A program made the translations under genes and the position numbers. A DNA stretch of 64,000 nucleotides, taken from positions 128,001 through 192,000 of the forward strand of contig JAVZLK010000001.1 in NCBI GenBank assembly GCA_038883795.1. The letters are read 5' to 3'. Under the pieces are notes generated by a model that made no database searches, was not told the origin of the DNA, and saw nothing but the letters and a program-made list of their open reading frames with translations. Shown here one piece after another: positions 23,146-24,721 of this stretch (position 1 is its first letter; the number at the start of each line of letters is the position of its first letter). The stretch comes from Candidatus Bathyarchaeia archaeon (GTDB lineage Archaea; Thermoproteota; Bathyarchaeia; Bathyarchaeales; Bathycorpusculaceae).

Positions 23146-23560
23146 TCCGACACCAGCCGACACCAAAAAATCCAACAAAATGCAGCGAAATGTCTATTTA
23201 TATTTGTTATACCGACAGTTTTATATACAACTTTGAAATTTAACATCTATTGGTGGACTTAAAGTGTCGGAATACAATTTCAAAAAGCCAGAATCAAGGG
23301 AGGAACTTATCAGAGTATTGACGGATGCTGCCAGAAGAGAAATGCAGGAACGAATTCGCGCCAAGGAAAAACCGACAAAACCTACAGTTTCAGGAACAGC
23401 GAAAATTTTGAATATTCATAGGGATACGCTTTATACTTGGCTTAAGGAGTTTAATGTCGATTTTGATGATATTTGTAAACAAGTTTCTACGAAAGTTTTG
23501 TCGGAAACTGTGGAAGCGCCTGGAAAATATACCTATTTAATCGGCGAAGCCCTTGTCGGA
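23146..23560. promoter_or_regulatory. Cluster of CCGACA/TGTCGG sites over the fae-hps promoter and 5' end (putative operator array)
   Basis: CCGACA at 23147, 23157, 23212, 23372; TGTCGG at 23265, 23499, 23554. Confidence 0.5.
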
Positions 23561-24721
23561 GAGGGTAATGAGGTTGCGCATATTGATCTTTTGATAGGGG
23601 ATAAGGATGGGCCTGTTGGAGAGGCTTTTGCTCAAGGGCTTTCTAATCTTTCTATGGGGCACACGCCATTATTAGCGGTTATAAGGCCTAATCTTCCACC
23701 TAAACCTCATACTTTGCTTGTGCCAAAGGTTACTGTGAATAAGTTTGAAGATGCAAACAAGATTTTTGGTCCGGCGCAGGCTGCTGTGGCGAAGGCTGTT
23801 GCGGATGCTGTTGAGGAGGGGATTATTCCTAAAGAGAAGGTGGATGATTGGGTTATAATTTGCAGCGTTTTCATGCACCCCCAAGCTAGCGATTATCGGA
23901 AAATATACCACTATAACTATGGAGCAACCAAGCTGGCTTTAAAGAGAGCATTGGCAAAGTATCCTTCATTGGAGAAGGTTTTCTATGATAAGGATAGAGC
24001 TAAACATCCAATAATGGGATTCAGAGTGCCACGCCTTTGGAGACCACCATATCTGCAAATATCTTTGGACATACCAGACTTGGATAGAACTAGAAAGATT
24101 ATAGCTCAGATTCCTCGCAGCGACAGAATAATATTGGAGGCCGGAACGCCGCTAATTAAGCGCTATGGAACAAGGGTGATAAGCGACCTTCGAGATGTTG
24201 CCAAAGATGTTTTCTTCATTGCAGATTTGAAAACTTTAGATGTTGGAAAGGTTGAAGTTGACTTGGCTTATGATGAAACCGCAGACGCCGTTATCGCTGC
24301 AGGATTAGCCCCGGAAGAAACCCTTAACGCCTTCATTCACGAAGCAAAAAGACTTGGAATATATGCAGTGGTGGACATGCTAAACGTAGAAGATCCTATC
24401 AAAAAGTTGAAGACGCTTAGAGAATTTCCCGACGTAGTAATCATCCATAGAGGAATCGACGAAGAAAGCGGAAGGACAATAGGATTGGAGCTAATACCAG
24501 AACTGCGGAAAACCTTCAGCGACAAGCGCTTTTTGATTGCCGTGGCAGGCGGCATAGTGCCAGAAACTGCTAAAGAGGCTTTAGAAAAAGGCGCCGACAT
24601 AATCGTTGTTGGGAGGTATGTGACGCAGTCAAAGGACATTGAAAGGGCTGTGAGGGAGTTCCTTGAGCTTACGCCTTCCATGAGAGAAGACATAGACTTG
24701 TTCAGAGTTCACGTAGAATAG
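23264..24721 (+). CDS. fae-hps: Bifunctional formaldehyde-activating enzyme / hexulose-6-phosphate synthase with N-terminal HTH
   Basis: Fae: [68 protein letters not shown]; about 85 extra N-terminal residues with an HTH pattern. Confidence 0.92.

Follow-up and report, generated by a model that had tools for sequence, protein, structure and literature searches.

A bifunctional Fae-Hps enzyme with a predicted helix-turn-helix head is a candidate autoregulator of its own gene in Bathyarchaeia

A 64,000-nucleotide stretch of a Candidatus Bathyarchaeia archaeon genome (assembly GCA_038883795.1, contig JAVZLK010000001.1, positions 128,001 to 192,000; hereafter the window) encodes HTH-Fae-Hps, a protein in which a bifunctional Fae/Hps enzyme is preceded by a head with a predicted helix-turn-helix (HTH). 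Copies of the word CCGACA are spread from the promoter of this gene into its coding sequence. Judged from comparative sequence evidence, the protein is probably both the enzyme and an autoregulator of its own gene that acts through these sites, and there it would probably be a repressor. This reading is carried by the conservation of the sites as DNA and by the correspondence between head type and promoter word across the class.

The fusion protein and its N-terminal head

The gene and its parts, all read on the forward strand, are as follows.

23264..24721, + strand: HTH-Fae-Hps gene, GTG start, 485 residues (open reading frame plus Pfam/NCBIfam)
23264..23464, + strand: N-terminal head, with a long helix (residues 12-32) followed by the predicted HTH (helices 42-49 and 53-62)
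23465..23539, + strand: variable linker (residues 68-92) joining the head to Fae, with little conservation and with gaps in alignments
23540..24016, + strand: Fae domain (residues 93-251; PF08714, 240.7 bits; TIGR03126, 261.1 bits; PDB 1y5y, E 5.4e-45)
24047..24661, + strand: OMPdecase/Hps domain (residues 262-466; PF00215, 112.1 bits; PDB 9lj9, a 3-hexulose-6-phosphate synthase, E 3.4e-31)

Both domains, and a whole-protein score above the curated cut-off of the bifunctional Fae/Hps equivalog (NCBIfam NF009833, PRK13307; 587.6 bits vs 274), identify the 485-residue protein by sequence as a bifunctional Fae/Hps. Positions 2-390 of this 392-position model, which also covers the headless Fae-Hps of methanogens, align end to end with residues 91-484. 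The N-terminal extension ahead of Fae comprises 92 residues, slightly more than the about 85 given in an earlier reading of this DNA from its letters alone (the sequence-only reading), whose description of a Fae-Hps with extra N-terminal residues containing an HTH was borne out.

AlphaFold2 (AF2) applied to 30 orthologous heads predicted helix 12-32, helices 42-49 and 53-62 and then a linker helix, at a mean predicted local distance difference test score (pLDDT) of 72.7. The full-length AF2 model was poor (pLDDT 61.4, predicted template modelling score 0.36) and was used solely for the head, which is still folded in it, and for the low-confidence linker (residues 76-88, pLDDT <50). Neither an alignment of 25 full proteins nor one of 30 heads shows any variation at P40, T41, H52, R53, D54, T55, L56, W59, V65 and F67. 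Across 103 distinct orthologous loci (30 and 80 from two genome and contig searches, minus 7 duplicates, with the start codon set by alignment; head identity across species 42-96%), the entropy of the 28-codon HTH block is 0.44, 0.18 and 1.25 bits at codon positions 1, 2 and 3, a pattern that indicates a translated, constrained peptide. The sequence-only reading had allowed that the segment might not be an HTH or might not be translated; from the alignments and the models, it is a translated, conserved domain with a predicted HTH.

Residues 1-92, used as a query, matched 660 proteins at E<=0.01; of the 120 that were listed, most were Fae+OMPdecase proteins of 483-489 residues, and several had been deposited simply as Fae/Hps. 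Hundreds of database entries are annotated as plain Fae/Hps with the head ignored. Among the 401 Bathyarchaeia genomes sampled, 127 contain the head, always fused in a frame of about 480 residues except at contig ends; it occurs in 94/103 genomes of the window's family, in 18/18 and 10/11 of two sister families and in one genome of another order. One apparently stand-alone head of 89 residues (genome G025) was rejected as such, being the same fusion cut by a contig end.

Assignment of the head to a family is weak, and we accordingly describe it as an HTH that belongs to no named family. The Pfam HTH families score below their gathering thresholds (HTH_29, 18.4 vs 28.1 bits; HTH_28, 17.7 vs 25; HTH_23, 16.4 vs 24.6), a GP3_package match is likewise sub-threshold (18.5 bits), and scores to Fis/NtrC-type three-helix domains (PDB 4l5e) are not significant; Pfam HTH_8 has no match in the window's protein and reaches 16.7 bits, vs a cut-off of 22, in one family fragment. 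Foldseek comparison of the head with the PDB gave no match at E<=0.001, and in a PDB profile search the best hit was the phage protein 2ao9 at a non-significant E of 0.12. A head profile searched against 1.84 billion representatives gave 99 matches at E<=0.001: among the ten strongest, checked in Pfam, a Fae domain is present in six, the other four being short and probably truncated, and the remaining matches are generic multi-HTH proteins and the HTH part of the small-terminase GP3_package family. With the AF2 HTH and these multi-HTH and small-terminase neighbours, the head looks DNA-binding.

Fae condenses formaldehyde with tetrahydromethanopterin (H4MPT), and Hps contributes the 3-hexulose-6-phosphate synthase of the ribulose monophosphate route. 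The same genome (2,182,157 bp, 81 contigs, 40.6% G+C) also encodes Phi (176.8 bits vs a cut-off of 160) and Mch. Together with Fae-Hps these fit a ribulose monophosphate route run towards pentoses, with formaldehyde going to H4MPT, by the pathway logic described for methanogens. The full HTH-Fae-Hps fusion was found in 32 of 41 close relatives, and a second complete Fae-Hps only in the window's own assembly. Because the fusion is the sole Fae-Hps found in most relatives, it is considered a working enzyme; on this gene-content evidence the fused protein must serve as the cell's Fae-Hps enzyme, its catalysis being predicted.

The second Fae-Hps of this assembly is headless and lies on a 6.2-kb contig (G000 contig C68:816-2063, minus strand, locus L032). 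It has 51% identity to residues 70-485, and the 4.5 kb read there has 37.8% G+C vs 40.6% for the genome; no complete second copy like it was found in the 40 relatives searched, and it may represent contamination or transfer. Many relatives have a further Fae domain with about 50% identity to residues 82-251, inside an open reading frame of about 495-505 residues (for example G001:C11:20477-20986 and G025:C31:12063-12554, locus L033). In the PDB, residues 128-286 of a 290-residue chain named 'Avd' (8ub7, chain B) match the Fae domain at E 2e-44.

A conserved array of CCGACA sites

The sites and promoter elements of the window's gene are listed below, with positions relative to the start codon.

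23147..23152, + strand: CCGACA, upstream pair, copy 1, at -117 (the -105/-117 site class)
23157..23162, + strand: CCGACA, upstream pair, copy 2, at -107, 10 bp past copy 1
23212..23217, + strand: CCGACA at -52, 3 nt upstream of the TATA box, in the B recognition element (BRE) position
23220..23227, + strand: TATA box TTTATATA of the putative fae-hps promoter, predicted from sequence
23252..23257, + strand: Shine-Dalgarno-like GGTGGA, 7-12 nt ahead of the GTG start
23265..23270, - strand: TGTCGG over codons 1-3 (+1)
23372..23377, + strand: CCGACA at +108, spelling Pro-Thr just ahead of the HTH
23499..23504, - strand: TGTCGG at +235, inside the linker
23554..23559, - strand: TGTCGG at +290, in conserved Leu-Val-Gly codons of Fae

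The sequence-only reading had reported these same seven copies, and all were recovered. It had also placed the array on the gene's own promoter, which holds for the three copies upstream of the start codon, whereas one copy covers the start codon and three lie within the coding sequence. Its estimate that well under one copy would be expected by chance agrees with the whole-genome count: 434 copies of CCGACA/TGTCGG correspond to 0.083 per 415 bp. The window holds 28 copies vs 14.4 +/- 3.8 in shuffled sequences, a number reached in 0/100 shuffles, and nowhere in the genome outside the fae-hps cluster do four or more copies fall within 415 bp. Of all the hexamers in the window, CCGACA forms the most surprising cluster (Poisson tail 1.1e-9), with ATCACA near 56739 a close second.

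Within the genome the word appears specific to this gene. Its arrangement with a TATA box has a sole instance, the fae-hps promoter, among 689 TATA-like boxes; the idea that CCGACA is a general BRE was accordingly rejected (1/689 boxes preceded by it). Adjacent pairs within 120 bp number 19 vs 10.2 expected; five are in the fae-hps locus, and the 14 outside it are near the expectation of about 10. Four candidate further targets were inspected and none was a convincing promoter, no copy was found at the phi locus, and none lies near the headless Fae-Hps on contig C68.

The array recurs in the orthologous loci, to whose conserved site classes all seven copies of the window belong. At least one copy of CCGACA within -130..+10 was found in 103/103 loci and at least two in 98/103, where the sequence-only reading had considered that the cluster might be missing from HTH-bearing orthologues. 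The -52 site is present in 101/103 loci, the +1 TGTCGG in 97/103 and both in 95. A TATA-like T[TA]A[TA]A[TA] follows the -52 site at exactly 3 nt in 98/101 loci, starting at -45..-41 in 95 of the 98 loci where such an element was found. The position just upstream of the archaeal TATA box is the BRE, read by TFB, and given the 3-nt gap the -52 site occupies this position. Farther upstream (-125..-86) a site is exact in 59/102 loci and within one mismatch in 81/102, vs 23% of control windows; in loci of the same genus it is a direct repeat with copies 9-10 bp apart, the second often reading TCGACA. Downstream, a site lies in +90..+125 in 82/103 loci and in +200..+260 in 80/103. Site density is 11.2/kb over -130..+300 vs 0.82/kb in the rest of the same loci. 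The sites are also regularly spaced, the centre-to-centre distance being 52-54 bp in 43/58 loci between -105 and -52 and in 80/95 between -52 and +1, and the distance from +1 to +108 being 107 bp in 53/66.

Synonymous codon choice was informative for the sites that overlap coding sequence. Ser2 is encoded by TCG in 99/100 loci vs 14.9% of Ser codons later in the genes, and codon 3 starts with G in 100/103 though its residue varies (E, G, D, A, V). Pro-Thr in codons 29-46 is spelled CCGACA in 86/162 cases vs 9.2% expected, and linker Ser codons are TCG in 88/231 vs 14.9% expected. The Leu-Val-Gly at +290 is spelled T|GTC|GG in 30 of the 64 loci with this tripeptide (2.7 expected), and a Pro-Val-Gly at +350 spells the word in 32/86 loci (3.3 expected), vs 19/259 (11.6 expected) for control x-Val-Gly tripeptides later in the gene. 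These tests rule out amino-acid conservation as the cause of the coding-region sites. Taken over the loci compared, the sites show conservation, regular phasing and selection at the DNA level; the large locus counts are a measure of conservation and not of independent replication.

These data also bear on a more trivial explanation, in which the mature enzyme lacks the extension, being translated from an internal GTG or TTG near 23498-23510, or the cluster is an effect of chance or codon usage. In-frame TTG and GTG codons do occur just ahead of the Fae domain, and three of the sites coincide with conserved residues. The extension is nevertheless conserved in the manner of a protein, its frame is open in 103 loci, and a Shine-Dalgarno-like 4-mer lies in -16..-4 ahead of the upstream start in 63/103; the cluster is unique in 2.18 Mb, and the codon tests are about ten-fold above the usage-based expectation. 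We consider this explanation scarcely credible.

Head type and promoter word across Bathyarchaeia

In a survey of 151 genomes of the class, the Fae-Hps of other orders aligned only from about residue 87 onwards, often in frames 50-90 residues too long. Forty such loci were read and fell into three kinds, with a ribbon-helix-helix (RHH) head, with a different HTH head or with no head. Some RHH members pass Pfam thresholds (RHH_1, 25.9 bits vs 20.5; ParD_antitoxin, 22.1 vs 21), as do some with the second HTH head (HTH_7, 26.5 bits vs 23.8; HTH_23, 26.0 vs 24.6); the RHH head occurs in about 40/401 sampled genomes and the second HTH in 2/401. Three words were counted in the region -130..+10 of the start codon for each head type, the window's own type being HTH1 and the RHH row being an enlarged set of 33 distinct loci.

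HTH1 head, 103 loci: CCGACA in 103 (98 with at least two), GTGACAC in 0, TGCGGCA in 1
RHH head, 33 loci: CCGACA in 0, GTGACAC in 32 (28 with at least two), TGCGGCA in 0
Second HTH head, 2 loci: CCGACA in 0, GTGACAC in 0, TGCGGCA in 2 (five sites in all)
Headless Fae-Hps, 18 loci: CCGACA in 0, GTGACAC in 0, TGCGGCA in 0

By these counts the promoter motif switches with the head type, and the sequence-only reading's suggestion that CCGACA might accompany only HTH-bearing versions held for the window's type of HTH (103/103, vs 0/33 RHH, 0/2 second HTH and 0/18 headless). A first sample of 16 RHH loci had given the same picture (GTGACAC 16/16, CCGACA 0/16), and in the enlarged set GTGACAC reaches 13.0/kb at the promoter vs 0.066/kb elsewhere in the loci.

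The RHH-headed loci (L117-L134 and L157-L186, from other Bathyarchaeia orders) have a distal TGTGACAC near -125 and a composite proximal operator, in which GTGACAC and a GGACAC/GTCACA-like copy about 6 nt after it lie some 15-20 nt ahead of a GGTTAAATA-type TATA box. The second HTH type (L115 and L116, in G051 and G073) is resolvase/HTH_23-like, and its TGCGGCA/TGCCGCA copies flank the TATA box on both sides.

Two natural variants are informative within the window's type. In G159, of the window's family, the head is deleted in frame and the two core sites read CCGGCA and ATGTCAGG. G136 has two copies. In the diverged second one the recognition helix reads Q-L-D instead of H-R-D, and its 1.3-kb locus lacks CCGACA; the first, with an intact H-R-D-T-L helix, has five sites, at -105, -51, +1, +96 and +105. 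Further head deletions were sought among ten same-family genomes without a head match (G159 and G008 included), with G159 the sole deletion variant; in the others checked, the gene was missing from the assembly or cut at a contig end.

The same comparisons allow us to weigh the possibility that the array serves some other transcription factor encoded elsewhere, and that the fused head has a different job, for example to bind other DNA, RNA or a partner protein. The lack of a significant family assignment for the head would suit such a factor, as would the tracking of phylogeny by both head and motif and the existence of orthologues with an intact head and an imperfect array (one with a mismatched -52 site, one without the +1 site; see below). 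We regard it as improbable, however, since each change of head (HTH1, RHH, second HTH, none) comes with a change of motif, and the motif is degraded both where the head is deleted (the G159 orthologue) and where the recognition helix is altered (the G136 paralogue). The word clusters nowhere else in the genome, so that a separate factor would have a single target, one that always carries the HTH1 head. There is also no regulator gene among the conserved neighbours, an M32 peptidase lying upstream in 68/98 loci. A separate RHH or HTH gene just upstream of headless Fae-Hps was a candidate that we rejected, with an RHH or HTH Pfam match in 0/55 upstream open reading frames at 17 loci.

Proposed autoregulation

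Under the autoregulatory reading, the N-terminal head would recognise the asymmetric word (T)CCGACA, copies of which lie about 53 bp apart (-105/-117, -52 by the TATA box, the start codon, +108, about +230 and +290), the +1 site lying a few bases downstream of the expected transcription start. Occupancy of the TATA-proximal and start-codon sites would block TFB and RNA polymerase, and the level of the enzyme would become self-limiting. Binding may in turn respond to whether a substrate or product occupies the enzyme body; formaldehyde and H4MPT, which the sequence-only reading had proposed, are candidate ligands. Since the Fae and Hps domains are oligomeric, a particle would present several heads, and one enzyme particle could occupy several sites together, its heads held on flexible linkers of about 20 residues. 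Fae crystals contain five chains per entry (10 chains in the two entries 1y5y and 1y60), which we take to be a homopentamer, and OMPdecase-family enzymes are dimers. A multi-head particle of this kind fits single asymmetric words placed every five helical turns rather than a palindrome.

Several points weigh against this reading. The upstream -105 site is exact in only 59/102 loci; G029 keeps the head and yet has CCGGCA at -52, and G047, of another order, keeps H-R-D-T-L and yet has ACGACA ahead of its TATA box and no +1 site, exceptions from which it follows that the word is not strictly required. Head type and motif both follow the phylogeny of orders and families, so that the independent events come down to a handful: about three types of head, a single deletion and a single diverged paralogue. 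Repression, moreover, is argued from site position alone, and if the binding is real we somewhat favour it as the sign of the regulation.

A different role for the same binding has also to be considered, in which the head binds the sites but not for transcription initiation, and instead tethers the enzyme to its own locus or controls translation on the mRNA. Four of the seven window sites fall within transcribed or coding sequence, one of them (+1) overlapping the start codon, and the intragenic sites are under selection at the DNA level, all of which would accord with such a role. The best-conserved site, on the other hand, lies upstream of the TATA box and the next at -105, neither of them within the mRNA; the sites occur in both orientations, which suits double-stranded DNA over RNA; and the operators of the RHH-headed cousins are found only upstream of the TATA box. 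A tethering or translational role therefore seems to us very unlikely.

Returning to autoregulation, a bolder version would have the large oligomeric Fae-Hps carry several heads, each for a single site, and wrap some 450 bp of DNA, from its promoter into the 5' coding sequence, around itself, with contacts phased at five helical turns and a direct readout at the enzyme of formaldehyde/H4MPT or pentose-phosphate status, the same enzyme having captured three unrelated domains (Fis-like HTH, resolvase-like HTH and RHH) in different orders. From the sequences we hold this version to be doubtful. If it were true, the three captured heads would imply unusually strong selection for self-sensing of the Fae-Hps reaction, perhaps since Hps in the pentose-forming direction releases free formaldehyde.

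Comparison with known enzyme-regulators

With both parts in one polypeptide and conserved candidate operators at its own promoter, HTH-Fae-Hps would join the enzymes that double as regulators through a fused DNA-binding domain. It shares no homology with RbkR, PutA, BirA or NadR, and the likeness is in the way of working. RbkR (PMC5397151) is an archaeal riboflavin kinase/regulator with an enzyme and an N-terminal DNA-binding domain in one chain; its operators, found by comparative genomics, include its own gene and vary between lineages, and its DNA binding is tuned by the substrate and product of the enzyme. The two proteins would share an enzyme fused to an N-terminal DNA-binding domain with its own gene as a target, a functional likeness only. 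They differ in that RbkR joins a winged HTH to a CTP-dependent riboflavin kinase, domains unrelated to those considered here (Pfam finds no riboflavin kinase in HTH-Fae-Hps), and in that it controls a multi-gene regulon and is validated by experiment and a crystal structure, whereas HTH-Fae-Hps is known from sequence, with its own gene the sole target found.

In enterobacteria, PutA combines an RHH head with a proline catabolic enzyme, represses its own locus via several operator copies and is membrane-switching. It resembles the present case in having an N-terminal DNA-binding head on a metabolic enzyme, and the RHH-headed Fae-Hps of sister orders share its head class; its enzyme is a different one, it is bacterial and membrane-switching, and the window's protein has an HTH rather than an RHH. 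BirA and NadR are bacterial enzyme-repressors with an N-terminal HTH and an enzyme, in which the ligand state controls repression of the protein's own pathway. Their operators are palindromic and bound as dimers, whereas the HTH-Fae-Hps sites are single asymmetric words about 53 bp apart that extend into the coding sequence. HTH-Fae-Hps would be unusual among enzyme-regulators for an operator array reaching 300 bp into coding sequence and for the apparent capture of three unrelated heads by one enzyme. A search of the open full-text literature, whose coverage excludes subscription journals, found no description of a DNA-binding Fae-Hps.

The Bathyarchaeia are uncultured archaea abundant in sediments and hot springs, and almost nothing is known of how they regulate their genes. 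Few archaeal regulators have a known ligand logic; HTH-Fae-Hps offers a candidate regulator, operator, target and short ligand list from sequence. If the reading is correct, three unrelated heads, each with a matching promoter word, would amount to a natural swap experiment and to a clean example of the convergent evolution of an enzyme regulating its own gene.

Genomic context and a second hexamer cluster

In the window the Fae-Hps gene is preceded by a gene for an M32 carboxypeptidase and followed by those for ribosomal protein S6e and aIF2-gamma. The order M32 carboxypeptidase, fae-hps, S6e (window positions 21504-25272) is partly kept among the loci with enough flanking sequence, S6e lying downstream in 43/83 and M32 upstream at the frequency given above.

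A second cluster in the window, at 56734-57004, has seven copies of ATCACA/TGTGAT within 415 bp (Poisson tail 1.4e-9); Tandem Repeats Finder, run on 56000-58000, found no repeats. This intergenic DNA lies upstream of a gene on the minus strand (56014-56733) encoding a 239-residue protein with a coiled coil and a C-terminal winged HTH of MarR/TrmB type, which may be another autoregulated factor with a repeated operator.

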